From an uncultured Acidimicrobiales bacterium (lineage in GTDB: Bacteria; Actinomycetota; Acidimicrobiia; Acidimicrobiales; JANYDT01): a stretch of DNA of 64,000 nucleotides. The position numbers and the translations under genes are program-made. How positions within the stretch are numbered: the first letter of the stretch is position 1; each line of letters begins with the position of its first letter. Where the stretch lies: assembly GCA_963763135.1 (NCBI GenBank), contig CAVXNJ010000002.1:81562-145561 (forward strand), read 5' to 3'. This document shows, piece by piece, positions 2,862 through 58,677 of this stretch. The notes beneath the pieces were generated by a model. The model saw nothing but the letters and a program-made list of their open reading frames with translations. It was not told the DNA's origin and did no database searches.

Positions 2862-4295
2862 CTACTTACCGAGCTTCTGGTCGATGATGGCCTGCGCGTC
2901 GGCGGCGGCCTTCTTCGGATCCTTGCCGCCGGCGACGGCGAGGAACGCATCTTCAACCGCGTTGCGGATGTCGAGGTTCAGGAACTGGAAGCGGGGAGCG
3001 AGGAAGACCCGCTTGTTCGCCCAGGCGCTCGTGTCCTGGAGTTCCTTCGTCTTGTACTTGACGTTCGCCACGGTGGAGTGCTGCGAGGTGCCGTTCGCGT
3101 ACTTCTCCGCGTTCTCCGGCTGGCTCATCCAGTCGACGAACTTGATCGCGGCGGCCTGCTTCTTCGCGTCTTTCTGACGGGCGTTGACGCCAAGAATGAA
3201 CGTGGCGTTGTAGATGCCTTCCCACTTCGGCTTCTGGCCGAGCGGGGTGGTGATCGGCGAGTACAGGTCGAAGTTGAGCTTCGGGTTGAGCTTGAGGGCC
3301 GGACCCATCGAGAACGTGCCGGTGGCGAGCATGAGCGCCTTGCCGTTGGCGAAATCGGCCAGTGCGCCGTTGTCGTTGACGGCGAGCGGGTTGTCGCCGA
3401 AGCAGTCTTCGGAGATCTCCTTGAACGTCTGCAGGCTCTTGGTCATCCAGAAGTCGGTGACCTTCGCCTGGCCCGTGTCGATCATCTCGAAGCCGTTGTC
3501 GGTCGGCATGATGTTCATGACGAGACCGTTCATGGAGAGCTGTCCGGCGTTGCCGCGCACGCCGCCCGGCCATGCGATCGGCGTGATGCCCTTGCTCTTG
3601 ACGGTCAGACAGAAGCGCTGCAGATCGTTGATGGTCTGCGGAAGGGTGACGTTGAGCGACTTCAGCAGGTCGACGTTGACCAGCGGCATGTTGAACACCA
3701 GCTGGTACGGGAGGCCGAGTTGCTTACCGTCGAACGAACCCGGAGCGATGAGGTTCTTGTTGTAGTTCTTCACAAACGGCTGGTTGCTCAGGTCGAGCCA
3801 CACGCTGCCGCCGTTGGCCTTCGCCATGTTGAAGAACTGGGCGCCACGGAAGGCGGTGAAAACGTCGGCCGGCTTGCCGTCGAGGATGTCCTGGAGGGCC
3901 TGCGACTGGTAGTCGTTGGAGTTCTTGATCGACTGCTCGACTTCGATGCCGGTCTTCGCGGTGAAGTCCTTGATGATGTCGGCGATGACGTCTTTGTCTT
4001 CAGCGCGCCAGTGGAAGAACGTGATCTTCGTGCCCTTGAGGTCGTCGGCGGCGGCACCGGCGTTCGAAGCACCTCCAGCGGCGACCGGGGCAATGGTGGC
4101 GGCGGTGACTTCGATTTCACGGTAGACGTACTTGCTGCCTTCCTTCTTGCAGATCAAGGTACCCGTCGTCTTGTTCACCTGCTTCTTGGTGCAGGCGCCA
4201 CCGGCTTTGGCAGCCGTCGCAGCGAATGCGACCGGCGTGACGAGCCCGGCGGCGAGTGTGCACGCGGTTGCGGCCGCGAGCCAGTGTTTCTTCAT
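2862..4295 (-). CDS. extracellular solute-binding protein of the sugar ABC system
   Basis: 477 aa with a signal-like N-terminus MKKHWLAAATACTLAAGLVTPVAFA. First gene of the SBP-permease-permease operon. AGGGGGA Shine-Dalgarno upstream of the ATG. Carries a short Cys-containing N-terminal insert before the SBP fold. Confidence 0.85.
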   Translation of the reverse strand: MKKHWLAAATACTLAAGLVTPVAFAATAAKAGGACTKKQVNKTTGTLICKKEGSKYVYREIEVTAATIAPVAAGGASNAGAAADDLKGTKITFFHWRAEDKDVIADIIKDFTAKTGIEVEQSIKNSNDYQSQALQDILDGKPADVFTAFRGAQFFNMAKANGGSVWLDLSNQPFVKNYNKNLIAPGSFDGKQLGLPYQLVFNMPLVNVDLLKSLNVTLPQTINDLQRFCLTVKSKGITPIAWPGGVRGNAGQLSMNGLVMNIMPTDNGFEMIDTGQAKVTDFWMTKSLQTFKEISEDCFGDNPLAVNDNGALADFANGKALMLATGTFSMGPALKLNPKLNFDLYSPITTPLGQKPKWEGIYNATFILGVNARQKDAKKQAAAIKFVDWMSQPENAEKYANGTSQHSTVANVKYKTKELQDTSAWANKRVFLAPRFQFLNLDIRNAVEDAFLAVAGGKDPKKAAADAQAIIDQKLGK

Positions 4296-17470: not shown

Positions 17471-18909
17471 ACGCCGCAAACGACGGGGCCGTGCGGGTCT
17501 TCAACATCGGCGTTGAGGAATTCCGACGGGGACCTGACTCGGTCGGCGCCGAAGTTCACCAGGTCGACTGGCGCCCGCCACTCGACGGCGATCCACATAC
17601 GGCCGACGTGTGTTCGCGCCTTCTGACCGACGCCCGCGTCGACGATGCCAACGCCGAAGCGGTGGCTCGAATACTGGCGGTCGATCCGACCGTGATCGAC
17701 GTGATCCCGGCGGCGCAGGCCATGCCCGGGTTGAGCGGAAGCGGGCCGAAGCTGCTTCACGCCGGACCGCCCATCGCCTGGGCCTCGATGTGCGGACCCA
17801 TGAAGGGCGCCCTGATCGGCGCCGTCATGTACGAAGGGTGGGCCGGCACCGCTGACGAGGCAACGGCGCTACTGGCCAGAGGACATGTGGGCCTTGAGCC
17901 GTGCCATCATCACGGCGCGGTCGGCCCGATGTCGGGGGTGATCAGCCCCTCGATGCCGGTGTGGGTCGTCGAAGATCCGGCCACCGGCCGACGATCCTTC
18001 AGCAATCTCAACGAAGGACTCGGGAAGGTACTCCGATTCGGGGCCTACGAAGCGTCGGTCCTCGAACGCCTGAACTGGATGGCCACCGAGCTCGCCCCGG
18101 TTCTGTCGGACGCGATCCGCTCGCTCGGCGGAATCGCACTTCGACCAATGATGGCTCAGGCTCTCCACATGGGCGATGAAGTGCACAACCGCAACGCCGC
18201 GGCCACGGGCCAACTCCTCAAACGGCTCGCCGCGCCAATCGCCCAGAGCTCGGCATCGAGCGCTCAGTCGAGCGGACAGTCGAGCGATTCGATTGTGCGG
18301 ACACTCCAGTTCATCGGCGGAAACGACCATTTCTTTCTCAACCTGTCGATGGCGGCATGCAAGCTTCAACTCGATGCCGCGTCAGGTGTACCGCATTCCA
18401 CGCTCGTGACGGCCATGGCCCGCAACGGCGTGAACTTCGGCATCCGGGTCAGTGGTCTTGGCAATACCTGGTTTGAGGCGCCCGCGTCGATGATCGAGGG
18501 TCTGTACTTCGCCGGTTTCGGCCCTGACGACGCCAACCCCGACCTCGGTGACAGCGCGATCACCGAGACCGCCGGGCTGGGAGGGTTCGCGATGGCCGCG
18601 GCACCCGCAATCGTTGGCTTCGTCGGAGGCACATCAGCCGACGCGTTGGCCTACACCCTGCGCATGCGCGAGATCTGTGTCGCGGAGAATCCGGTCTTCA
18701 CCATCCCATCACTCGGCTTTCGCAACACCGGACTCGGCATCGACATTCGACTCGTGATCGATACCGGCATACTCCCGGTTATCAACACCGGCATCGCCCA
18801 CCGTGAGGCCGGAATCGGACAGATCGGCGCGGGCATCACCACCGCACCATTCGTCTGCTTCACCCAAGCGGCTAGCGCACTCGTCGAGGCACAATCCGTC
18901 AGCAGCTAG
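17467..18909 (+). CDS. DUF1116-family protein (E. coli YlbE/AllG-like)
   Basis: 480 aa, GTGA overlap with the fdrA stop. Conserved blocks are HAGPPIAW, GLEPCHHHGAVGPMSGV, HNRNAAATG and ITETAGLGGFAMAAAPAIV. Confidence 0.75.
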   Translation: MNAANDGAVRVFNIGVEEFRRGPDSVGAEVHQVDWRPPLDGDPHTADVCSRLLTDARVDDANAEAVARILAVDPTVIDVIPAAQAMPGLSGSGPKLLHAGPPIAWASMCGPMKGALIGAVMYEGWAGTADEATALLARGHVGLEPCHHHGAVGPMSGVISPSMPVWVVEDPATGRRSFSNLNEGLGKVLRFGAYEASVLERLNWMATELAPVLSDAIRSLGGIALRPMMAQALHMGDEVHNRNAAATGQLLKRLAAPIAQSSASSAQSSGQSSDSIVRTLQFIGGNDHFFLNLSMAACKLQLDAASGVPHSTLVTAMARNGVNFGIRVSGLGNTWFEAPASMIEGLYFAGFGPDDANPDLGDSAITETAGLGGFAMAAAPAIVGFVGGTSADALAYTLRMREICVAENPVFTIPSLGFRNTGLGIDIRLVIDTGILPVINTGIAHREAGIGQIGAGITTAPFVCFTQAASALVEAQSVSS

Positions 18910-19137
18910 TGTCCCGTAAGCCAAATTCGCTGCGTAATTATCGGCCAGCTTCGGCCGTCGCTGCCTCCGTCGGCCGGCAGGGTAGCGAAGCAGGCCCTGC
19001 GCAGATGTTGCGGTTGGGTAAAGCAGGCGCTGCCTTCTGGCGTCCCGCAGGGCTGCGAAGCAGGCCCTGCGCAGAAGTTGCGACGACCAAACCGTGGCTC
19101 GCTAATTACGCGACCGTCTTAACTTACGGGACACTAG
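18906..19137. mobile_element. 232-bp MITE-like element bounded by perfect 15-bp terminal inverted repeats
   Basis: CTAGTGTCCCGTAAG (18906-18920) pairs with CTTACGGGACACTAG (19123-19137). A subterminal GCGTAATTA inverted repeat is also present. Inside are two direct copies of GCGAAGCAGGCCCTGCGCAGA, each able to form a GCAGGG/CCCTGC hairpin. There is no coding capacity. Confidence 0.45.
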
Positions 19138-19189
19138 CTCCCGCTCGATTCCCTTGAGCTGCCGTCGGGTGCGCCGCTGACATCACCGC

Positions 19190-19903
19190 GTGCGTCGAAT
19201 CTGTAAGGCTGGTGCTGTGCCACGCCATCGTTTCGTATCATCCGTCGCCATCGGGGCGCTCGTGACCCTGATCCCGCTTTCCATCGCCTCGTGCAGTTCG
19301 TCGTCGAGCGATGACACCGTCGTCGATACTGCTGTCGATACCGTCGTCGACTCCACGACCACTTCCACCGGAGACACGAGCGCGGTGGATTCGACGACTG
19401 CGTCGAGCGCTGACACGACTGCGACGGGCGCAACCGCTGAAACAACAATCTCTCCGACCGCGGCCGAGTCGACCGTGGCCGTGGCGGCCGACGACTCTGT
19501 CAACATCGCCGGACTCGCACTCGACAGCGCGGAAACGGTGATCGTAGAAATGCTCGGCGCTCCGGACGCCAAGTCGTCGACCGTAGAAGAGGGTGCCACC
19601 GGCGAATTCGTCTCTACCTGGACATGGCCGAAGACCGGTGTGACGGCCAAGATGGCCGCCGCTTCTCCCTCCGGTCCCTTTGTCGTACGTACGCTTACTA
19701 TCGCGCCACCGTCGACACTCCGTACCGTCGCCGGAATCGGGATCGGCTCGACCGATGCGGAGGTTCGTTCCGCCTACGGTGACAGCGTCAGCAAAGAGTC
19801 GACACCTGAACTCCTGATCGTCGGCTCGGTCTTCGGCGGTCTTCTCGTGAGCGTCGCCGACGGCAAAGTGACTGAACTCTTTGTCGGAGCAGCTGCTGAA
19901 TAG
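19190..19903 (+). CDS. hypothetical lipoprotein with a Thr/Ser/Asp-rich linker
   Basis: Signal plus lipobox IPLSIASCSSS, then a low-complexity linker and a globular C-terminal domain. The start is ambiguous (GTG at 19190 or a GTG nine codons downstream). Confidence 0.6.
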   Translation: MRRICKAGAVPRHRFVSSVAIGALVTLIPLSIASCSSSSSDDTVVDTAVDTVVDSTTTSTGDTSAVDSTTASSADTTATGATAETTISPTAAESTVAVAADDSVNIAGLALDSAETVIVEMLGAPDAKSSTVEEGATGEFVSTWTWPKTGVTAKMAAASPSGPFVVRTLTIAPPSTLRTVAGIGIGSTDAEVRSAYGDSVSKESTPELLIVGSVFGGLLVSVADGKVTELFVGAAAE

Positions 19904-20028
19904 ATGCCGCGGTCGGCACAGCGCGGCGGGTGCCCGGGGCTGTTTGGTTGTCAAGGTTCGGGGTTCGGTCAGGCTTGTGCGGACACGCGGGACAGCGTGC
20001 GCCTGCCTGGCCGGGAGGTGGTAGACGG

Positions 20029-21276
20029 TTATGCAGGTGTGCGCAATCGTCTGCCCGGTTGGATGAGTTCACCAGTGTCGCGTTGCACGATGTCAACCAG
20101 GCCGTCGGGTGCGCGTTCCACCACGAGCTCGTTCTCGTGGGTATGCGGGTGATGCGGGCGACATAGCGGCACCATCTTGTCGACATCGGTTTCGCCGTGG
20201 TCGAGGTGGACTTCGTTGATATGGTGAATTTGGCATTGGTCAGCCCATACCTGGCATTCGGGGTACACACAGCGTTGGTCACGGGCGATGATTGCGAGTC
20301 GTTGAACCGCTGTAGGTTCATGTCGGGCGCGTCCGAATTTGAGGACTTCGCCATGCATGTTCTCGAACAGGTAGTAGAGCTCGGAGCGGGTTTGATCGAA
20401 CAGCGACTCGGTGACTGGGATCGGGCCTTTGCCGATCAGGGTGGCCTTCCATTGGTCCACGTTGAATACGATGATCACCGCGGGTTTCGCGGTTTGCACT
20501 ACCGTTCCCGCTACCGGGGTTGAACCGCCAACCACCCGATCATCATCGCTCGCCTGTTCGGTGGGATTGCTGTCGGTGGCGGTGTCGTAGAACGGTCGGA
20601 CACCAGCGATATCGAGTAATGCGTCGGCCATCCGTTGATCGTGACTGTCACCACCGTGCCCACCCGCGGTTCGGGCGCGTTCGGGGTGATCCTTGCGCCA
20701 TTTGGCATTCACCAACGTAGCCAGCACTTCGCGGAAATGTTTCCCGTCGACCGGTGGCAACAACCCGCGAAACGCCAGCATGCCGTCGGGGCCGTCTCCA
20801 AACCGGAGATAGCGCTGCGCTCGCTGACGTTTCGCCGAGTCATCCCCGTGCTCGGCCGCTAGCCGGAACGATTCGACCGTTACCCTGAACTCTTCCGGTG
20901 ATTGCACCACTGCAACATCCAACAGGTCCTCTGCGCCAGCCATAGCGATGACTCGTTCCAACGCGGCCAGATGTTCGGGCGAAACCACACCCCGGCCGAG
21001 CAGTTCACGGGCTCGAGCGAAATTGTCACACGTCACTGCTACCTTGCTTCGTTGAAGCGCTTCCCCCGCCGACACTCCACACGCCCGAGCAATCGCAGTC
21101 GTTTTGTCTCGCGTCTCCGGCATTCCTGCGATCAACCCGGCCATTGCTGCGTGCGCCTCACGCACGATGCGTTCCAGCTCGGCCAAGCCCGCCATGCGCT
21201 CAACCTGCGTGAATCCACTGGCGTCCATCAACGGGACGTGCACGGCGGCCCACAACGCGATTCCGATCACTTCCAT
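20029..21276 (-). CDS. DUF222 / HNH endonuclease (13E12-repeat-like family)
   Basis: 415 aa. The C-terminus has CQIHHINEVHLDHGETDVDKMVPLCRPHHPHTHE (HNH motif). The long helical N-terminal domain is typical of actinobacterial DUF222 proteins. Confidence 0.85.
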   Translation of the reverse strand: MEVIGIALWAAVHVPLMDASGFTQVERMAGLAELERIVREAHAAMAGLIAGMPETRDKTTAIARACGVSAGEALQRSKVAVTCDNFARARELLGRGVVSPEHLAALERVIAMAGAEDLLDVAVVQSPEEFRVTVESFRLAAEHGDDSAKRQRAQRYLRFGDGPDGMLAFRGLLPPVDGKHFREVLATLVNAKWRKDHPERARTAGGHGGDSHDQRMADALLDIAGVRPFYDTATDSNPTEQASDDDRVVGGSTPVAGTVVQTAKPAVIIVFNVDQWKATLIGKGPIPVTESLFDQTRSELYYLFENMHGEVLKFGRARHEPTAVQRLAIIARDQRCVYPECQVWADQCQIHHINEVHLDHGETDVDKMVPLCRPHHPHTHENELVVERAPDGLVDIVQRDTGELIQPGRRLRTPA

Positions 21277-21307
21277 CTATTCTCAACTCCCTCCGGTTTC
21301 GTGTTCA

Positions 21308-21321
21308 CAAACATATGTTCG
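21308..21321. promoter_or_regulatory. imperfect LexA/SOS-box-like dyad upstream of the HNH gene
   Basis: CAAAC-ATAT-GTTCG lies 32-45 nt upstream of the ATG at 21276. It resembles GAAC-N4-GTTC with one core mismatch. Confidence 0.3.
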
Positions 21322-21441
21322 CGTTGAAATGACCCGATGTCAATCGCGATTTCGTCGAACAGGCAGAATTCCCAGGCCGTGTCCGCAGTAATCGGCGATC
21401 GCTTCGGTCCGGCTCAGTGTTGGACCGCTAGGTTGGGCGAC

Positions 21442-21830
21442 ATGGTGATGTGGGCGCATCGAAATTCGGCAACGACACCGTAAGATTTAGGGTGAGCGGC
21501 TCGGGCGACGCTCCAAACGATCCCTTCGACAAACGTGCAAACTGCGTTACATGCGGTCGTCGAAGCCGAGGTTCCCTCGGACCAAGACGCCATCTTCGAG
21601 CGCTTCGCCGTAGCGCAGCTCTCCTCTGCGAACCCTCGGTGGAGCTGAGTCCAGTCGATCTTGGTGCTTCGTCGCGGCGGGTGAGCGGGGGCGCAGCAAC
21701 CACATACCGCAGCGAATCCAACCCCGAAGGTGTCGCTTGGCGGTTCGCCCGACCGGAGGGGCCAGCCCCCCTGGCCTATGCAGCGAAGCTGGAGCATTTG
21801 GCATGGGCGGCAGGGAAGCACTCATGCGAC
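21442..21830 (+). pseudogene. degraded DUF4259 paralog
   Basis: The DNA aligns with the intact copy at 22441 (ATGG.GATGTGGGC..., CAACGACACCG, and an identical 19-mer GGACCAAGACGCCATCTTC). It has a 1-nt deletion after codon 4, giving a TAA 9 codons later, and at least one further frame change. Confidence 0.55.
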
Positions 21831-21924
21831 TCCAACCTTCGCCGTCTTCACCGGACCTTGACAGTCAGATTCAGGCCGTCCTCGAAAGTTGAGGTCAAAC
21901 GGCGACATCTGAGAGCCTGACGGT

Positions 21925-22416
21925 ATGCGTTACGAGGTGGTCGACGAGCTGCAGCCCGGCGAAGTCGATCTCCTTTCGCGGTTGTTGGACGAGGAGTTGG
22001 GCGGTCGTTGGCAGGTCCGCCTCGGAGAGCTGATCGATGTGCTCACCCTGCCGGTGGTGGCCGCACGTTCGGACGAGCGGCTCGGTGGCGTGTGCTGTTA
22101 CGCGCCTGATGTCCCACGGTGGGAGCTCGCCCTGCTCGAAGTCTTTCCTGCGGATCGGGGCAGCGGACTGGGCGGGGTCCTCATCGACGAGGTCGCAGCC
22201 CGAGCCACAGCAGCGGGGGCCGCCGGCCTTTGGCTGACGACCACGAACGACAACATTCCTGCGATCTCGCTGTATACGCGTCACGGCTTCACCGTCACGG
22301 AGCGCCGGCTGGGCGTGATCGCGTCGTACCGAACGTTGAAGCCGACGATTCCGCTGTTGGGCGTGGCCGGGGTGCCGATCACCGACGAGCTGATCCTTCA
22401 CCGAAACCTGCCGTAG
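21925..22416 (+). CDS. GNAT-family N-acetyltransferase
   Basis: 163 aa. The acetyl-CoA motif region is LEVFPADRGSGLGGVLIDEV, followed by NIPAISLYTRHGF. Confidence 0.8.
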   Translation: MRYEVVDELQPGEVDLLSRLLDEELGGRWQVRLGELIDVLTLPVVAARSDERLGGVCCYAPDVPRWELALLEVFPADRGSGLGGVLIDEVAARATAAGAAGLWLTTTNDNIPAISLYTRHGFTVTERRLGVIASYRTLKPTIPLLGVAGVPITDELILHRNLP

Positions 22417-22440
22417 GAATGGACGCTAGGTTCGTCCGGC

Positions 22441-22890
22441 ATGGGGATGTGGGCCGCTTCGGCATTTGACAACGACACCGCAATGGATTGGGCGAGCGGT
22501 CTGAGCGCCCGTCCAGACGAGCCCTTTGGCAAACTGGAAGCAGCATTTCGTGCGGTCGCCGAGGCCGACACGCTCGCGGACCAAGACGCCATCTTCCAGT
22601 GCGTGGGAGCGGCGGCGGCTCTCCTGCACAGCCTTGGTATCTCGACCGCCAGAACTGTCCATGAGGTCGAAACCTGGGCGAAGAACCTGCACGTCCCGAC
22701 ACCCGAAATGCTCCTTCCACTTGGGGTCGCTGCCATGCGAAAGGTCAGCGCAGACCCGGGCGTCGTCTCGAACACCATCGCTGCGCCGCGTGACGTGCTC
22801 CTCCTGGCTCGGCCTATTGGTCAAACTCGAATCGCAATTGTCCGGAGCAGCTCACCCCGCCGCCTCCGTCGATCGGTCAACGATCGATAG
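22441..22890 (+). CDS. DUF4259-family protein
   Basis: The N-terminal hallmark is MGMWAASAFDNDTAMDW. 149 aa. Confidence 0.6.
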   Translation: MGMWAASAFDNDTAMDWASGLSARPDEPFGKLEAAFRAVAEADTLADQDAIFQCVGAAAALLHSLGISTARTVHEVETWAKNLHVPTPEMLLPLGVAAMRKVSADPGVVSNTIAAPRDVLLLARPIGQTRIAIVRSSSPRRLRRSVNDR

Positions 22891-23033
22891 GTCAACCGAT
22901 GATCGAAAAGTCACGCCTGAACCGGCAACTCCGAAGCCGCGACGGCCAAGCGCAACAGAACGACTGATCGGCGGGTGGATGCGTTTGAAGACCGATCCTG
23001 AGTGCGTGGCCTATTGCGTGGCCGAAGCCCGAG

Positions 23034-23357
23034 TTGGTGGTCTCACCCTTATACCGTTTCGTTCCGAACAGGTCTCCGGTCGCTCGGAAGTACGCGCTTG
23101 CGGCGCCTTGGCAACCTCTGAACCTAGATCCTCGAGACGTGCGGAAATACTTCGCCGTAGATGCCAACCTCACGACTGTGGTCGTAGAACTGAACTACTG
23201 GCATAGCTTTCGCGTGTGGTCAGGCACCGTGCCGAAGACATTCTTCGGGTGTGTCGACGGCAAAGTGCGGACGCGCCGGCCATCAAACGCAGTCGTGTGG
23301 GAGAACGGAAACACAGCATCTTCGTACCCAACGCCGGATTGGTGGAAAGCCAATTGA
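23034..23357 (+). CDS. hypothetical protein (weak call)
   Basis: 107-aa ORF in a lower-GC patch. Third-position G+C is elevated only in its C-terminal half. No recognisable motif. The opposite strand also yields protein-like fragments, so this may be gene debris. Confidence 0.25.
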   Translation: MVVSPLYRFVPNRSPVARKYALAAPWQPLNLDPRDVRKYFAVDANLTTVVVELNYWHSFRVWSGTVPKTFFGCVDGKVRTRRPSNAVVWENGNTASSYPTPDWWKAN

Positions 23358-23377
23358 CGCACGGCGAAACGGAGACC

Positions 23378-23885
23378 GGCTACATGAACGTGGGGCTGAC
23401 GAACGTGTGGCCGTAGATGCTCCGCTGTGACGTCTACGGCTACATGAACGTGGGGTTGGCGATCGTGTGGCCGTGGATGCTCCGCTGTGACGTGTACGGC
23501 TACATGAACGTGGGGTTGGCGATCGTGTGGCCGTAGATGCTCTGCTGTGACGTCTACGGCTACATGAATGTGGGGTTGCTGATCGTGTGGCCGTAGGTGC
23601 TCCGCTGTGACGTCTACGGCTACATGAACGTGGGGGTTGGCGATCGTGTGGCGGTAGATGCTCTGCTGTGACGTCTACGGCTACGTGAACGTGGGGTTGG
23701 CGATCGTGTGGCCGTAGATGCTCCGCTGTGACGTCTACGGCTACGTGAACGTGGGGTTGGCGATCATGTGGCCGTAGATGCCTCCGTGACGACATCTACG
23801 GCTACGTGAACGTGGGGGTTGGCGATCGTGTGGCCGTAGGTGCTCGGTGACGACGTTTTCGGCTACATGAACGAGGGGCGGACCG
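23378..23885 (+). repeat. 60/61-bp tandem repeat, about 8.4 copies (MIRU-like minisatellite)
   Basis: The unit is GGCTACATGAACGTGGGGTTGGCGATCGTGTGGCCGTAGATGCTCCGCTGTGACGTCTAC. Copies start at 23378, 23438, 23498, 23558, 23618, 23679, 23739 and 23800, with a partial copy at 23861. Each unit has the hairpin GCCGTAGA-N15-TCTACGGC. Confidence 0.95.
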
Positions 23886-23924
23886 CTGGAGCGAAGAAGA
23901 ATCTGGAACAAATTCCGGGCTACC

Positions 23925-23951
23925 TGTCGATTCCGGGGTACAACGTTCGTT
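23925..23951 (+). promoter_or_regulatory. candidate ECF-type promoter for the DGPF/sigma operon
   Basis: TGTCGA, 17 nt, CGTT about 55 nt upstream of the ATG at 24004. A GGAAC-N16-GTCGA alternative overlaps at 23905-23930. Confidence 0.3.
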
Positions 23952-24003
23952 GTGGTGTCGAGGCCGGCAATCGTGCGGGTCGCACCAACCAAGGAGATCT
24001 GAA

Positions 24004-24363
24004 ATGAGCCAGTACCTGTTGTCAGTCCACGGCAGTGACGAGTCCGTTGCGGCCGTCGATCCGTCCACCATGCAGGGGATGTTCGAGGCGGTTGAAGCGT
24101 TCAACGAAGAGGTGCGCCAGGCCGGTGCATGGGTGTACGCGAACGGCCTGATGTCTGCCAGCACCGCCACAGTCGTCGACGCCACCGGGGGCGAAACCGT
24201 GTTCACCGATGGCCCGTACCTGGAGACCAAGGAGCACATCGGCGGCTTTTGGATCATCGACGTCGCCGACCTCGACGCCGCCCTCGCCTGGGCCGCCAAA
24301 GGTTCCGCGGCTTGCCAGGGTCCGGTCGAGGTCCGTCCGTTCCAGCCCACCGACGGCGCCTGA
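24004..24363 (+). CDS. YCII-related (DGPF) domain protein
   Basis: 119 aa with an AAGGAG Shine-Dalgarno. Contains the motif TDGPYLETKEHIGGFWIIDV. Confidence 0.85.
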   Translation: MSQYLLSVHGSDESVAAVDPSTMQGMFEAVEAFNEEVRQAGAWVYANGLMSASTATVVDATGGETVFTDGPYLETKEHIGGFWIIDVADLDAALAWAAKGSAACQGPVEVRPFQPTDGA

Positions 24364-24371
24364 CGCAAACC

Positions 24372-25776
24372 GTGCCAGATTCGCTCGCTGCCTCCGCCAT
24401 CGGTCGCATCTTCCGGGAGGAATCCGGACGCTCGATCGCCACACTGGTCCGCACCTTCGGCGACATTGACATCGCCGAAGAAGCGGTCCAGGAGGCGTTC
24501 GTCGAAGCGACCAGGCGCTGGCCCGAGTCCGGCCTTCCCCCGAACCCCGGGGCATGGATCACAACGACGGCCCGCAACCGCGCCATCGACCGGATTCGCC
24601 GTGAATCGACCCGCCATGAACGACACACCGCCGCTGCCCGACTCGACCCGGGCGAGGAACAAGCGACGCCGGTCGGCCCCGTGAACGACGACCGACTTCG
24701 GCTGATCTTCACCTGTTGCCATCCGGCTTTGGCCACGACCGCACAGGTCGCGCTGACACTTCGGCTCCTCGGGGGACTCGAAACCGGCGAAATTGCCCGA
24801 GCGTTTCTGGTGCCGGAGTCCACGATGGCCCAACGCATCGTGCGGGCGAAGCACAAGATCAAGGCGAACAACATTCCGTACCGGATTCCCGCCGATCACG
24901 AGCTGCCCGATCGACTCAAGCCGGTCCTTACCGTCGTCTACCTGATCTTCAACGAAGGCTACGCAGCCACGGGCGGCATCGAGCTTGTCCGTGACGACCT
25001 TTGTGCCGAAGCGATCCGACTCGGACGCCTGCTCGCGGAACTGATGCCCGACGAACCCGAGGTGAACGGGCTCCTCGCGCTCGATGCTGTTGATCGCATC
25101 ACGGCGTCCCGCACGGATCGGTCCGAACGGGGAGATCGTGTTGCTAGCCGATCAGGATCGCACCCGGTGGGATCGTGCGCTGATCGACGAGGGCCAAGCA
25201 CTGGTGCGGGCGTCGCTGCGGCGCAACATGCCGGGTCCGTATCAGGTTCAGGCGGCGATCAATGCGGTTCACAGTGACGCGGCAAGTGCATCCGACACTG
25301 ACTGGAACCAAGTGCTCGCGCTCTACGACCTCCTCTACCAGTTGTCGCCGAACGCAGTGGTGGCCCTGAACCGTGCTGTTGTGCTGGCCGAAGTCGAGGG
25401 CACGTCCGTCGCTTTGACCGCGGTCGACGCACTCGACCTCGACCGCTACCATCCGTTTCACGCAACGCGGGGAGAACTTCTCAGCCGCCTCGGCCGCCAC
25501 GCCGATGCCGCAACCGCCTTCCGACGCGCACTCGCCTTGACCACCAACGAGACCGAACAGGGCTTCTACACGGCGGCCGTCGGCCGGGCCATCGCGGCGT
25601 CGGCCGGCACGCGGCCGACGCCGACGCCGATGCCGACGCCATCGCGGCCGCCGACGCCATCGCCATCGCCGCCGACGCCAACCCCAACGCGGCCGCCATC
25701 GCCGCCGACCCCGACCCCAACTAACCGGGCGACAACCCGGTCGTTTCCTGTCCGATCTACCTCTCCATCAAGATAG
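24372..25776 (+). pseudogene. ECF sigma factor with a long TPR-like C-terminal extension (ECF42-like); apparent 1-nt insertion near 25083
   Basis: Sigma regions 2 and 4 are present (AWITTTARNRAIDRIRRE and GEIARAFLVPESTMAQRIVRAKHKI). The first frame ends at EPEVNGLLAL. The continuation MLLIASRRPARIGPNGEIVLLADQDRTRWDR...GPYQVQAAINAVH is in the +1 frame (ORF 25084..25776). Deleting G25083 restores GLLALMLLIA. Confidence 0.75.
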
Positions 25777-42019: not shown

Positions 42020-42874
42020 ATGAAATCCCGATCCTCCACCGCCGCTATCACGACGTTCCTGTTGATGTTCGCGTTCGGGTTTGCCGGTGCGTTCGCTGTC
42101 GTCCAGCAGAAGAACAAGTCCGACGTGGTCGTGGTCGACACCACTGACGCCGGAGTTGACACCGCTGCCGTCGATACGACGATTGCCCTGGGGCTCGACA
42201 CGACGATCGCGGATACCTCCGTTGCCGACACGACCGAGGCGCCACCTGAAACGGATCCGCCGACCACCGCCCCCAAGCCGACAATCCCTGCGGCCCGGTC
42301 CGAGCCGCCGATTTCGACCGACGGCGCGTTCCTCTCGACCCCGGACTCACCCGAACCCCGGCAGTACAACCCCGACGACGCCTGCAACAGCCTCGCCCGC
42401 ACCGGGTCTTCCGACGTCTGTGCGACCATCGGTATCGGTGACGCGACCTTCGCCTGGGTGTTCGAGAGCGGGGGAGAGGGTGTGGACCTCCTCGCGGCCG
42501 ACGCGGACCTGCCCGATGTGTACACGGTGCAACTGCGGGCAAACGGCCTCCCGGCTCAGCCGCCCCGCATCGTCGACGTGACCGGCGACGGCCAGGACGA
42601 CATCGTGCTCGGCTGGCGCAACGACGACGGCCTCCTGAACGTCGACATCGTCGAAGCCCGCGGCCGCTCACTCGTGGTCACGCTGCACCTCGAACTCGTC
42701 GACGGGCGGGTTTCCGCTGGTGGCGGATCACTCGACGTGTGGAACGGCGTCCCCCAGCCGGGCGACGACCCGGCCAATCCGAGCAGCTTCGACCGCTGGA
42801 GCTACGAAAAGCGTGGTGGTCGCTGGGTTGCCACCGCCGAGCGAGACGACAACCCGCCGAGCGGCCAGATCTAG
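42020..42874 (+). CDS. secreted hypothetical protein with an FG-GAP/VCBS-like motif
   Basis: Signal/TM sequence AITTFLLMFAFGFAGAFAVV, an Asp/Thr-rich linker, and VDVTGDGQDDIVLG. Confidence 0.6.
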   Translation: MKSRSSTAAITTFLLMFAFGFAGAFAVVQQKNKSDVVVVDTTDAGVDTAAVDTTIALGLDTTIADTSVADTTEAPPETDPPTTAPKPTIPAARSEPPISTDGAFLSTPDSPEPRQYNPDDACNSLARTGSSDVCATIGIGDATFAWVFESGGEGVDLLAADADLPDVYTVQLRANGLPAQPPRIVDVTGDGQDDIVLGWRNDDGLLNVDIVEARGRSLVVTLHLELVDGRVSAGGGSLDVWNGVPQPGDDPANPSSFDRWSYEKRGGRWVATAERDDNPPSGQI

Positions 42875-42886
42875 CGGGTTCGCCGT

Positions 42887-42937
42887 GGGAGTGGGTGCAG
42901 TTCGGCAGCCCGGGGCTGAGCGAATGCACCCACTCCC
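42887..42937 (+). terminator. long hairpin after the secreted-protein gene
   Basis: A perfect 13-bp stem, GGGAGTGGGTGCA / TGCACCCACTCCC, with a 25-nt loop, followed by TTTC. Confidence 0.55.
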
Positions 42938-42947
42938 TTTCAGATCC

Positions 42948-43111
42948 GTCTACCGACGGTGACAGCCGTCAATGTGATCGTTCACTGTGCTTGAGCCCCC
43001 GGGTTCCGGGTCACGTCTACCGACGGTGACAGCCGTCAATGTGATCGTTCACTGTGCTTGAGCCCGGTTCCGGGTCACGTCTACCGACGGTGCAGCCGTC
43101 AGATCGTTCAC
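42948..43111. repeat. 64-67-bp tandem repeat (2.5 copies) comprising the 3' end of tag plus its 3' flank
   Basis: Copy A is 42948-43014, copy B 43015-43078, and copy C (attached to the gene, with 4-nt and 1-nt deletions) 43079-43111. Confidence 0.9.
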
Positions 43112-43654
43112 CATGCCGGAACTCTGCATGAACGCGTACATCGTCGTCGGTCCCACGAAGCGGAATCCAAGCTTCTTCAACGCCTTCGACATGGCTTTGG
43201 ACTCAGCGGTCTCGGCTTGAATCGGCTCGTCGAGTTCGATGCCGGCTTTGCGATCGGTCGGTGCGAAGGACCACACGAACTCGTCGAGCGACTCGCCGCG
43301 GTCCAACATGGCGGCGGCCATTTGGGCGTTGGAGATCGCCGCGTTGATCTTGGCCCCGTTGCGAATGACGCCAGGGTTCGCCATGAGCCGGGCGACGTCG
43401 GCTTCACCGAACCGGGCGACGGTTTCGATGTCGAAGTTGGAGAACGCTTCCCGGAAGGTCTCGCGCTTGCGAAGGATCGTGATCCAGGACAACCCGGCCT
43501 GCATGCCTTCGAGCGTGATCTTCTCGAAGACCTTGTTCTCGCCGTGGAGGGTCACACCCCATTCGGTGTCGTGATAGCGCTGGTACAGGTCGTCGCTTGC
43601 GCACCAGGAGCAGCGAACGATGCCGTCGGAACCGGTATGGAGTCGGTCAGCCAT
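43049..43654 (-). CDS. tag: DNA-3-methyladenine glycosylase I with an altered C-terminus
   Basis: Contains RCSWCASDDLYQRYHDTEWG, EGMQAGLSWITIL and VGPTTMYAFMQSSGMVND. The ATG at 43654 has an AGGA Shine-Dalgarno. The ORF stays open to 44005 through a repeat region. Confidence 0.85.
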   Translation of the reverse strand: MADRLHTGSDGIVRCSWCASDDLYQRYHDTEWGVTLHGENKVFEKITLEGMQAGLSWITILRKRETFREAFSNFDIETVARFGEADVARLMANPGVIRNGAKINAAISNAQMAAAMLDRGESLDEFVWSFAPTDRKAGIELDEPIQAETAESKAMSKALKKLGFRFVGPTTMYAFMQSSGMVNDLTAAPSVDVTRNRAQAQ

Positions 43655-43697: not shown

Positions 43698-43990
43698 GGT
43701 CGCTCCGGAGTCGTTTTTGTTTCCGGTGGGTAGGTTTTCGGCTCCGGAGCGGTGTTGTCCGCGGCGGGTTTGGTCGCTCCGGAGTCGCCGGGAGTCGTTT
43801 CGTCGCTTGGGGGTCGACTTTTCGGCTCCGGAGCGGTGTTGTCGGTGGTGGGTTTGGCCGGTCTAGGTCGCTCTGGAGTCGTTTCGTCGCTTGGGGGTCG
43901 ACTTTTCGGCTCCGGAGCGGTGTTGTCCGCGGCGGGCTTGGTCGCTCCGGAGTCGCCGGGAGTCGCCGGGCGCCGACCCTTGGGAAACCG
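43698..43990. repeat. tandem repeat with alternating 74- and 94-bp spacing (168-bp super-unit, about 1.8 copies) between tag and dapA
   Basis: GGTCGCTC(C/T)GGAG anchors lie at 43698, 43772, 43866 and 43940. TTTTCGGCTCCGGAGCGGTGTTGTC recurs three times. Confidence 0.85.
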
Positions 43991-55913: not shown

Positions 55914-57134
55914 GTGGCCAACAAGATCAAAGTCGTAACCCCCGTCGTTGAGATGGACGGCGACGAGATGACCCGCATCATCTGGCAGTTCATCAAAGAC
56001 AAGCTGATCCTTCCGTACCTCGACATTGATCTGAAGTACTACGACCTCGGCATCGAGTCACGCGACGCCACCGACGACCAGATCACGATCGACTCGGCCA
56101 ACGCCACGAAGCAGTACGGCGTCGCCGTGAAGTGCGCCACGATCACCCCCGACGAAGCTCGCGTTGAGGAGTTCGGCCTGAAGAAGATGTGGAAGTCGCC
56201 GAACGGCACGATCCGCAACATCCTCGGCGGCGTGATCTTCCGTGAGCCGATCGTCATCTCGAACATTCCGCGTCTCGTTCCGGGCTGGACCAAGCCGATC
56301 GTGATCGGCCGTCACGCGCACGGCGACCAATACAAGGCGACCGACTGGAAGGTCCCGGGTGCCGGTACCGTCACCATGACCTACGTGCCGAAAGACGGCA
56401 GCGCTCCCGTCGAGATGAAGATCGCCGACTACGGCGACGACGGCGGCGTGGTGATGGGCATGTACAACTACAACGACTCGATCCGAGACTTCGCCCGTGC
56501 TTCGCTGCGCTACGGCCTCGACCGCAACATGCCGGTCTATCTCTCCACGAAGAACACGATCCTCAAGGCCTACGACGGCCAGTTCAAGGACCTCTTCGAG
56601 GAGATCTACCAGACCGAGTTCAAAGCCGAGATGGACAAGGCCGGCCTCACCTACGAGCACCGCCTCATCGACGACATGGTCGCCTGTGCCATGAAGTGGG
56701 AAGGCGGCTACGTCTGGGCCTGCAAGAACTACGACGGCGACGTGCAGTCCGACACCGTGGCCCAGGGCTACGGCTCGCTCGGTCTGATGACAAGCGTGCT
56801 TATGACTCCTGATGGCAAGACCGTCGAGGCCGAAGCCGCGCACGGCACCGTCACGCGCCACTACCGCGAACACCAGAAGGGCAACAAGACCTCCACGAAC
56901 CCGATCGCCTCGATCTACGCGTGGACCCAGGGTCTGGCCTACCGCGGCAAGATGGACAACACCCCCGAGGTCACCGCCTTCGCCCACGCGCTCGAGCAGG
57001 TATGTGTTGCGACGGTCGAGTCCGGCAAGATGACCAAGGACCTCTCGCTGCTGATCAGTAAAGACGCCCCCTGGCTCACCACCGAAGACTTCCTCGACGC
57101 CCTCGACGAAAACCTCCAGGCCAAACTCGGCTAA
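55914..57134 (+). CDS. icd: NADP-dependent isocitrate dehydrogenase (homodimeric eukaryote-like type)
   Basis: The GTG at 55914 follows an AAAGGAG Shine-Dalgarno. Contains [29 protein letters not shown] and [14 protein letters not shown]. Confidence 0.93.
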
Positions 57135-57228: not shown

Positions 57229-57630
57229 CGCGAGGTTTGGATGTTTGTTGCCGCTGGGCGGGCAGATTCATCCAAACGTGTGGTGGTGTGTGCTGCGGGT
57301 TCGCGAGGTTTGGATGTTTGTTGCCGCTGGGCGGGAAGATTCATCCAAACGTTGGGTTGGGATCGGCGGGTGCTCGTTTGTGCTCGCCGAGCGAGCAGTT
57401 GTGTCCGTACGTTGAAGCGGGCTGCCGAAGGTCCGCGAGGTTTGGATGTTTGTTACCGCTACGCGGGCAGATTCATCCAAACGTGTGGTGGTGTGTGCTG
57501 CGGGTTCGCGAGGTTTGGATGTTTGTTACCGCTACGCGGGCAGATTCATCCAAACGTGTGCGGGTGGGAGCTGCTTGTTCGCGAGGTTTGGATGTTTGTA
57601 ACCGCTGGGCGGGCAGATTCATCCAAACGT
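57229..57630. repeat. five copies of a 51-bp hairpin-containing repeat at 73-bp spacing (one 132-bp gap)
   Basis: CGCGAGGTTTGGATGTTTGT(T/A)(G/A)CCGCT(GG/AC)GCGGG(C/A)AGATTCATCCAAACGT occurs at 57229, 57302, 57434, 57507 and 57580. The outer stem is GTTTGGATG/CATCCAAAC and the inner stem CCGC/GCGG. Confidence 0.95.
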
Positions 57631-57645
57631 TGGGAACGGTGGGGG

Positions 57646-58677
57646 TTACCGGCGGCGGCCGCGGTTTATCGCTCGGGTGCGTTCCACCTGGCGTTGGGCC
57701 AGATCGGTCTGCTCGGTGATGAGCTTCTTCCAGCCCGCGACGCGGGCGGCGTCGAGCGTGCCCGCTACCACTGCGGCGTTGACCGCACATCCGGGTTCGA
57801 GGTTGTGCTGGCAGTCGGCGAACCGACAATTGAGCGCCACGGTTTCGAGGTCGCTGAAGGCCTCGGCGGTGCCCGCTTCGGCGTCCCACAACTGCAGTTC
57901 CCGAAGGCCCGGGGTGTCGATGAAGAGGGTGCCGTCGTTCATCACCAGAAGTTGGCGGTGTTTCGTGGTGTGACGGCCCCGGCCGTCGTTGCGGACGTCG
58001 CCGGTGGCCATGATCTCGGTGCCGGCGAGCCGATTCACGAGCGTCGACTTTCCGACGCCGGAGGATCCCACGATCGCGAGCGTCTTCCCGTGACCCATAT
58101 GTGCGCGTATCAATTCCAGGCCGAAGTCGGTGACCGACGATACGGGGACCACTTCGCTTCCGACTCCGATGGCCCGAACCTCGGCGGCCAGGGCATCCCG
58201 TACTTCCGGCGTCACCGCGTCGGCTTTCGTAAGCGCGACTACGATCTGCGCGCCGCTTTCGAAGGCCATTGCGAGGAAGCGTTCCAGGCGTCGGACGTTG
58301 AAGTCGGAGCCGTAGGCCATTGCGATGATCAAGACGTCAACGTTGGCCGCGAGGGGTTGGGCCTCGGTCGTGTCACCTGCGACTTTTCGGGCCACGAGGG
58401 TCCGGCGCGGTACCAGGCCCTGGATCGAACCGACCTGTAGGGTGCTGCCCGGCTTGATGACCACCCAGTCGCCGACCGTCGGCATGTCGAGCGCCTGCGA
58501 CACGTGTTTGAATCGGCCGGTAAGCGAACAGATGGCCACGGCGTCTTCGGTGACGACCTCGATGTGGCCTCGAGCGTTGGAAACGACACGGCCGACGATC
58601 GAACCGGCGGGCACCTGAAGCTGACCCATCGTGCCGAGCCCAAGGTCGGCGAGAGACGGGCGTGCTGCGCTACTCAA
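57646..58677 (-). CDS. rsgA: ribosome small-subunit-dependent GTPase A
   Basis: Contains the circularly permuted GTPase motifs (LTKAD and GSSGVGKSTLVN) and the zinc knuckle CRFADCQHNLEPGC. The start is uncertain (TTG at 58677 or ATG at 58629). The ATG at 58761 would overlap the upstream gene by 77 nt. Confidence 0.85.
   Translation of the reverse strand: MSSAARPSLADLGLGTMGQLQVPAGSIVGRVVSNARGHIEVVTEDAVAICSLTGRFKHVSQALDMPTVGDWVVIKPGSTLQVGSIQGLVPRRTLVARKVAGDTTEAQPLAANVDVLIIAMAYGSDFNVRRLERFLAMAFESGAQIVVALTKADAVTPEVRDALAAEVRAIGVGSEVVPVSSVTDFGLELIRAHMGHGKTLAIVGSSGVGKSTLVNRLAGTEIMATGDVRNDGRGRHTTKHRQLLVMNDGTLFIDTPGLRELQLWDAEAGTAEAFSDLETVALNCRFADCQHNLEPGCAVNAAVVAGTLDAARVAGWKKLITEQTDLAQRQVERTRAINRGRRR

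Follow-up and report, generated by a model that had tools for sequence, protein, structure and literature searches.

A stop-codon-spanning tandem array at the 3' end of tag in uncultured Acidimicrobiia, with a frameshifted gene-attached copy in one assembly

The tag junction and its tandem array

The window (the whole 64-kb stretch of DNA that was analysed) carries a tag gene whose product matches PF03352 (Adenine_glyco) with 230 bits and E = 1.6e-68 against a cut-off of 25, covering positions 1-170 of the 177 of the profile. The start of the gene was placed at the ATG at 43654, which aligns with the starts of the orthologs, and the ORF as assembled is 100% identical to the database protein P0001, with orthologs ranging from 95% to 55% identity. 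The surrounding genes, namely dapA, an RNase J gene, a PaaX-like gene, a desaturase gene and dapB, form a conserved neighbourhood, and the 284-aa gene converging on tag is its conserved partner in every lineage in which the tail of tag is duplicated (synteny in L002, L163, L166 and L167; these and the other relatives are listed below). The features of the junction are the following.

43049..43654, minus strand: tag (DNA-3-methyladenine glycosylase I), ORF as assembled, 201 aa, PF03352, with a frameshifted C-terminus
43081..43111, minus strand: copy C, the gene-attached repeat core, 31 nt, without ACAT and one T as compared with copies B and A
43053..43080, minus strand: spacer S1, 28 nt, 3 nt fewer than S2
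43017..43052, minus strand: copy B, a silent intact tail, 36 nt, encoding VNDHIDGCHRR-stop
42986..43016, minus strand: spacer S2, 31 nt, unique in the window, identical at 25 of 31 positions to the spacer of the relative L001
42950..42985, minus strand: copy A, a silent intact tail, 36 nt, identical to copy B
42887..42937, no strand: strong hairpin between the array and the convergent gene, with a 13-bp perfect outer stem within 25-nt arms (inverted repeat and fold)
42020..42874, plus strand: convergent neighbour gene from the ORF list, 284 aa, function not assigned, stop codon at 42874

The 3' end of tag, 36 nt long and followed by a spacer of 28-31 nt, is present three times in tandem, as an earlier note on this DNA had claimed and as the sequence itself, a repeat search, a three-way alignment and TRF all confirm; the TRF entry spans 42947-43101, with a period of 67, 2.4 copies, 95% matches and a score of 276. 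No match to either the 28-nt repeat core or the spacer is expected in shuffled sequences, so that chance is not an explanation of the repeat. When the unit of the gene-attached copy is compared with that of copy B, three deletions (of 4, 1 and 3 nt) and no substitutions are found. The 3-nt deletion, a detail that was absent from the earlier note, lies in the spacer, where it turns CCCGGGGG of S2 into CCGGG in S1. The repeat core contains two small near-palindromes (GTGA-ACGA-TCAC and TGAC-GGCT-GTCA), and each of the two deletions of copy C lies in a 3' arm of these, which may be a coincidence or a hint of hairpin-associated deletion.

Copy A is followed by 12 further nt and then by the hairpin at 42887-42937, which has no T-run and, judging from its position and fold, is probably a bidirectional terminator; with such a role, the silent copies would belong to the 3' UTR of tag.

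On the other side of the gene, the intergenic DNA that separates tag from the divergent dapA is filled by a different tandem repeat (84 nt, 2.8 copies, 85% matches, 43735-43965), which generates a spurious N-terminal extension of 117 aa with PEPKSRPPSDETTPE-type repeats. The longer tag ORF of 318 aa, which reaches 44005 and crosses this repeat, is probably spurious. The same intergenic region holds a 23-nt repeat in 7.5 copies in L163 and measures approximately 120 nt in L002, and the contig of L001 terminates at its edge.

The window is rich in minisatellites: its 64 kb hold four arrays with a period of 60-84 nt and a TRF score above 270, besides many shorter ones (28 TRF rows). At 23377-23878, a 60-nt unit is repeated 8.3 times with 90% matches in poorly coding DNA upstream of a small gene (approximately 24004-24363); each unit has an in-frame TAG, and the variation among the copies consists mostly of substitutions and of differences in the length of a G-run. 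The region 18900-25000 contains few ORFs with the coding-type GC3 seen elsewhere in the window and could represent an island, or DNA that is degraded or foreign. At 57229-57630, a 73-nt unit that contains a hairpin (GTTTGGATG...CATCCAAAC) is repeated 5.7 times between a convergent isocitrate-dehydrogenase-like gene (end at 57134) and a GTPase-like gene (end at 57646), in an arrangement that resembles REP/BIME elements, with the gene ends outside the units. A genome-wide habit of duplicating gene tails was rejected within the window: these two arrays are intergenic and contain no gene ends.

The frameshifted tail and the zinc ligands

In Tag, a 'zinc snap' is formed by an N-terminal Cys and His together with a C-terminal His and Cys. 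The zinc ligands have been reviewed as highly conserved, with a presumed structural role. Their positions in the window were obtained from a phmmer alignment to solved structures, in which residues 14-185 are paired with residues 3-175 of the TAG proteins of Salmonella and E. coli (E = 3e-49). The N-terminal pair is kept, as previously noted, with C15 and H28 corresponding to Cys4 and His17, and is invariant among the orthologs. At the other end of the protein, L185 occupies the site of His175, and the equivalent of Cys179 is missing from the assembled ORF. The body of the protein and the N-terminal Cys and His are, thus, conserved with respect to the E. coli, Salmonella and S. aureus enzymes (PDB 1LMZ, 1NKU, 2OFK and 4AIA), which differ from the window ORF in the residue at position 175 and in the presence of Cys179.

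The loss of these residues follows from the alignment and the translation of the array. With ACAT and T absent from copy C, the frame of the attached copy reads VNDLTAAPS... instead of the usual ending, runs into copy B and stops at a TGA within it, so that the ORF ends with VNDLTAAPSVDVTRNRAQAQ and reads ...SSGMVNDLTAAPSVDVTRNRAQAQ-stop, with neither DHxxxC nor any His or Cys in the tail. Both C-terminal zinc ligands are, therefore, lost in the sequence as given. Copies A and B encode what had been taken to be the canonical Tag C-terminus, and comparison bears this out: VNDH-x-x-G-C is found in 16 of the 16 closest orthologs, and DHxxxC (counting from the conserved Asp, His at +1 and Cys at +5) in 168 of the 168 other tag loci that were fetched. 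Among the 120 best database matches, the frameshifted tail is covered by P0001, the window's own protein, alone, and an LTAAPS-type ending, which might have been the natural one in this group, was found in none of the relatives.

Restoring the single T in copy C is sufficient for the frame to continue through S1 into copy B and to produce the tail VNDLTAVTVGRRDPEPGSSTVNDHIDGCHRR-stop (which reads VNDLTAVTVGRRDPEPGSST-VNDHIDGCHRR), in which both ligands reappear after an insertion of 20 residues. Thus, one base decides whether the ligands are encoded. As judged from the sequence, the protein encoded by the assembled ORF is most likely unstable or inactive.

The array in related lineages and its probable concerted evolution

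Relatives were selected by their common gene order, in which dapA diverges from tag and tag converges on the 284-aa gene. In the genome collection, which does not include the window's own genome, the nearest neighbours are uncultured Acidimicrobiia, the best match being an Acidimicrobiia MAG of 84% identity; a metagenome scan for close relatives gave identities of at most 59% among the matches listed. The copy number of the tag tail varies from 1 to 3 across eight related lineages, as listed here with protein identities to the window.

L001, 95%: two copies, 38 nt identical, attached copy intact
L002, 85%: one copy
L003, 84%: two copies and a 12-nt stub, attached copy intact
L163, 83%: two copies, 38 nt identical
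L164, 80%: one copy
L166, 80%: one copy
L167 and L168, 77%: identical 28-nt duplicate, spaced by 58 nt

The array is, therefore, carried in 1.5 to 2.3 copies by four of these Acidimicrobiia lineages, all of which share the gene order, and the attached copy is intact in each of them. L167 and L168 are independent assemblies from different samples, and the observation of the array in independent assemblies indicates that it is real. In the second copy of L003, GAG has become GAA and the Cys codon TGT has become the stop codon TGA. A scan of 166 tag loci limits the repeat of the coding tail to this Acidimicrobiia group: in approximately 155 more distant loci no coding-tail repeat was found, with short repeats after the stop codon only in L010 and L095, and more distant relatives with another gene order have neither room for a repeat nor a repeat. 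The intact attached copies of the array-bearing relatives imply that the array is older than the frameshift and that the latter is private to this assembly. The array is, thus, specific to one clade and predates the frameshift.

In L006, a 73% relative (Acidimicrobiia MAG JANOWU010000274, approximately 3575-3680), the sequence found in two to three copies at this junction is the 3' end of the neighbouring gene (GGTTCGCTACAGCTGGCCCGCCGG), which suggests that gene ends tend to be duplicated at the convergent junction as such.

The comparison of the window with L001 is informative on the age of the duplication. The two tag genes are 86% identical at the nucleotide level (pS = 0.51, dS = 0.87), and the spacers are homologous (25 of 31 positions, p < 0.001 by shuffling), which places the duplication before the split of the two lineages. 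Nevertheless, the copies within each genome are identical or nearly so, and the substitutions that are specific to a lineage are common to its copies (GAC..CGG TAG in the window, GAG..CGC TAA in L001). Copies that carry the changes of their own lineage imply either that unequal crossover or gene conversion has homogenised them or that the duplication has taken place repeatedly, and the pattern suggests that a MIRU/VNTR-like minisatellite lying across the stop codon has undergone concerted evolution. The spacers of L163 and L167 show no detectable homology to the other spacers; a single origin with divergence and several origins at a duplication-prone junction are both possible.

A simple tandem duplication was rejected as the sole origin of the array. 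The spacer resembles the flanking DNA (upstream of the repeat or beyond the last copy) significantly only in L001 and L003, and spacers that are mostly dissimilar to their flanks mean that one clean tandem duplication is not a full explanation of the repeat-spacer-repeat anatomy.

Nature of the array and of the frameshift

By analogy, the closest known kind of element would be the actinobacterial MIRU/VNTR/ETR minisatellite. The MIRU-VNTR and ETR loci of Mycobacterium tuberculosis are likewise head-to-tail repeats of 40-100 bp at gene boundaries of an actinobacterium, with variable copy number and no proven function, and the length of the tag unit falls within the minisatellite/VNTR range (approximately 40-100 bp). 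One of these loci, VNTR3239/ETR-F, adjoins the DNA glycosylase gene fpg1, and in species without the repeat only a few bp separate the flanking genes (PMC2734929); it is similar to the tag array also in lying beside a gene for a DNA glycosylase. The differences are equally clear. MIRUs are a family dispersed over approximately 41 loci of the whole M. tuberculosis chromosome (PMC2734929), whereas the repeat core and spacer of tag, when searched across the 64-kb window, had no occurrence outside the tag junction, so that within the window the unit is confined to one locus. The tag unit is flanked by convergent genes, not placed within an operon, and, unlike a MIRU, takes in the 12 terminal codons of the gene together with its stop codon, leaving silent copies of a functional C-terminus; the variation in its copy number is a variation between species rather than between isolates.

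Processes that expand, contract and homogenise short duplications, such as microhomology-mediated tandem duplication, slipped-strand events and unequal crossover, provide a second likeness. A preprint (bioRxiv 10.1101/2020.03.03.972455) reports that microhomology-mediated tandem duplications can reversibly disrupt or restore reading frames; in the tag array, in contrast, the frame is broken by deletions inside one copy and not by the duplication. The pilE/pilS system and the diversity-generating retroelements (DGR) share with it an expressed gene end with near-identical unexpressed copies nearby. Unlike pilE/pilS, the tag copies are 36 nt long and in direct tandem, and the relatives show no sequence diversification; a reading of the copies as pilS-type cassettes was rejected, no dedicated recombinase being found in the conserved neighbourhood. 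A DGR (TR/VR) was similarly discarded, since the differences are three deletions and are not adenine-specific, and neither a reverse transcriptase nor a dedicated recombinase is present in the conserved neighbourhood. The 28-31 nt between the repeats leave no room for an integrase-bearing element, as a duplicated att site would require, and a CRISPR array is at odds with two spacers of the same sequence bar a 3-nt indel and with a repeat that is the coding end of tag.

It seems rather probable to us that the locus is a recombining minisatellite lying across a stop codon, the expressed copy of which was recently frameshifted by lesions that would be biological. Its unit of 62-67 bp would consist of the terminal 36 nt of tag, stop codon included, and of 26-31 nt of spacer, in the tight junction of tag and the convergent gene. 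The array would have arisen in the ancestor of the related Acidimicrobiia group, or more than once within it, and its copy number would then have varied between 1 and 3, while unequal crossover or gene conversion kept the copies alike. Copies beyond the first stop codon would be untranslated 3'-UTR DNA, and would stay identical as conversion couples them to the copy under purifying selection rather than as a purpose-built reserve; with such a link to a selected copy, pristine silent copies need no function of their own. The spare copy of L003, with its Cys codon turned into a stop, indicates that the coding capacity of a spare is not selected. In the window, the deletions of 4 and 1 nt would have shifted the frame of the expressed copy, with loss of the His and Cys partners of Cys15 and His28, and the outcome would be a very recent pseudogenisation. 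The three deletions without substitutions in the unit of copy C could also be the result of a single complex mutational event.

The main competitor, which we regard as possible but distinctly less probable, accepts the three-copy array as real and attributes the three small deletions to polishing or consensus errors, caused by reads of mixed copy number or by misaligned units; the gene would truly end with VNDHIDGCHRR, and the true sequence would show GATCACATTGAC and GCTGTCACC. The concentration in the first unit of three deletions, one of which is a homopolymer contraction (CCCGGGGG to CCGGG), with no substitutions, is what such errors might leave, and the other arrays of the window vary mainly by substitution, with indels at 2-7%. 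The contig, at 574 kb, would fit a long-read metagenome assembly, and the confinement of the frameshifted tail to P0001 among the 120 best matches would also be consistent with an error. However, long uninterrupted ORFs with coding-type GC3 elsewhere in the window and six full-length syntenic genes around tag argue for a low general rate of indel errors; the ACAT deletion is not a homopolymer error and, in a short-read assembly, the variant k-mers would have to exist in the reads. Of the two readings offered by the earlier note, a switch and a snapshot of gene decay, the latter is the better one, to be held together with the chance of a consensus artefact just described.

A selected role for the spare copies was considered in two forms. 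In the first, which we find very unlikely, the clade would keep conversion-coupled 'spare tails' and a conserved spacer by selection, as templates that could repair, or toggle in a reversible manner, the zinc-ligand C-terminus, and this genome would have been caught in the OFF state. If this were true, the spare tails would represent a cassette-type contingency mechanism on a glycosylase. The second form, which has hardly any probability in our view, is a contingency or phase-variation locus proper, with the silent tails as donor cassettes and recombination toggling Tag between OFF and ON, thereby modulating alkylation repair or the mutation rate. Such a switch would find intact donors 59-126 nt downstream of the lesion copy, in an array that persists in several species and in which copies do exchange sequence over evolutionary time; the rapid reversion of microhomology-mediated tandem duplications, as described in the preprint cited above (bioRxiv 10.1101/2020.03.03.972455), would provide a precedent. 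The geometry of the repeats is, however, unfavourable. A restoring crossover must fall in the homology 5' of the first lesion, which measures only 10 nt (GTGAACGATC), so that restoration by crossover should be rare, while the longer blocks of identity (27 and 23 nt) are 3' of the lesions, where exchange deletes the spares and keeps the lesion. Efficient restoration of the frame, as expected of a phase-variable contingency locus, is not provided by this arrangement; gene conversion across both lesions from a one-sided 10-nt anchor is possible. Furthermore, the attached copy is ON in all four array-bearing relatives, the spare of L003 with a stop in place of Cys shows that spares are not maintained as coding cassettes, the OFF allele is absent from the other lineages (168 tag loci and 120 best database matches), and no recombinase or invertase lies within the syntenic neighbourhood. 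The idea of an on/off switch is left without positive support.

The proposal that the spacer and the silent copy form a functional element, either a 3'-UTR/terminator element or a protein-binding site, kept by selection and not by conversion alone, is highly improbable, and the conservation of the spacer is the observation that speaks for it. The spacers of the window and L001 are 81% identical (31 nt) despite the pS of 0.51, a value close to that of the promoter region upstream of tag (83%), whereas the intergenic DNA that follows the array on its downstream side can hardly be aligned (approximately 50% identical). When S2 (42986-43016) is compared with positions 666-696 of L001, no difference is found in the final 14 nt (GGGGCTCAAGCACA), and the mismatches are grouped in the middle of a small stem-loop. 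An identity above that of synonymous sites and of the downstream DNA is not predicted by a purely neutral array and is weak evidence against it. On the other hand, the conserved stretch amounts to only 31 nt, with low statistical power, and the spacer folds no better than its shuffles, the z-score of -4 for the fold of the whole region stemming from the downstream hairpin and from pairing between the repeats. Rfam, promoter and terminator scans returned nothing relevant, the spacers of L163 and L167 are unrelated, and three close relatives are without the element.

Two other possible sources of the conservation of the spacer were eliminated. A hidden ORF across spacer and silent copy is contradicted by hand translation, in which the differences between the window and L001 are non-synonymous in every alternative frame of both strands, and a recombination tract by the even spread of the mismatches between the window and L001 along tag.

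The comparative evidence makes this locus a clear case, found in nature, of concerted evolution along a tract of homology no longer than approximately 36 nt: a minisatellite that spans a stop codon persists across species whose synonymous sites are nearly saturated, with silent copies that track the coding copy exactly. It also illustrates that the space between convergent genes can be filled out by tandem duplication with both ORFs undamaged. In metagenome-assembled genomes, such loci easily mislead gene callers and distort the counts of pseudogenes. A genuine frameshift would mean that the constitutive 3-methyladenine glycosylase of this organism has been lost, or all but lost, very recently, and that the locus preserves the event ahead of any other decay.
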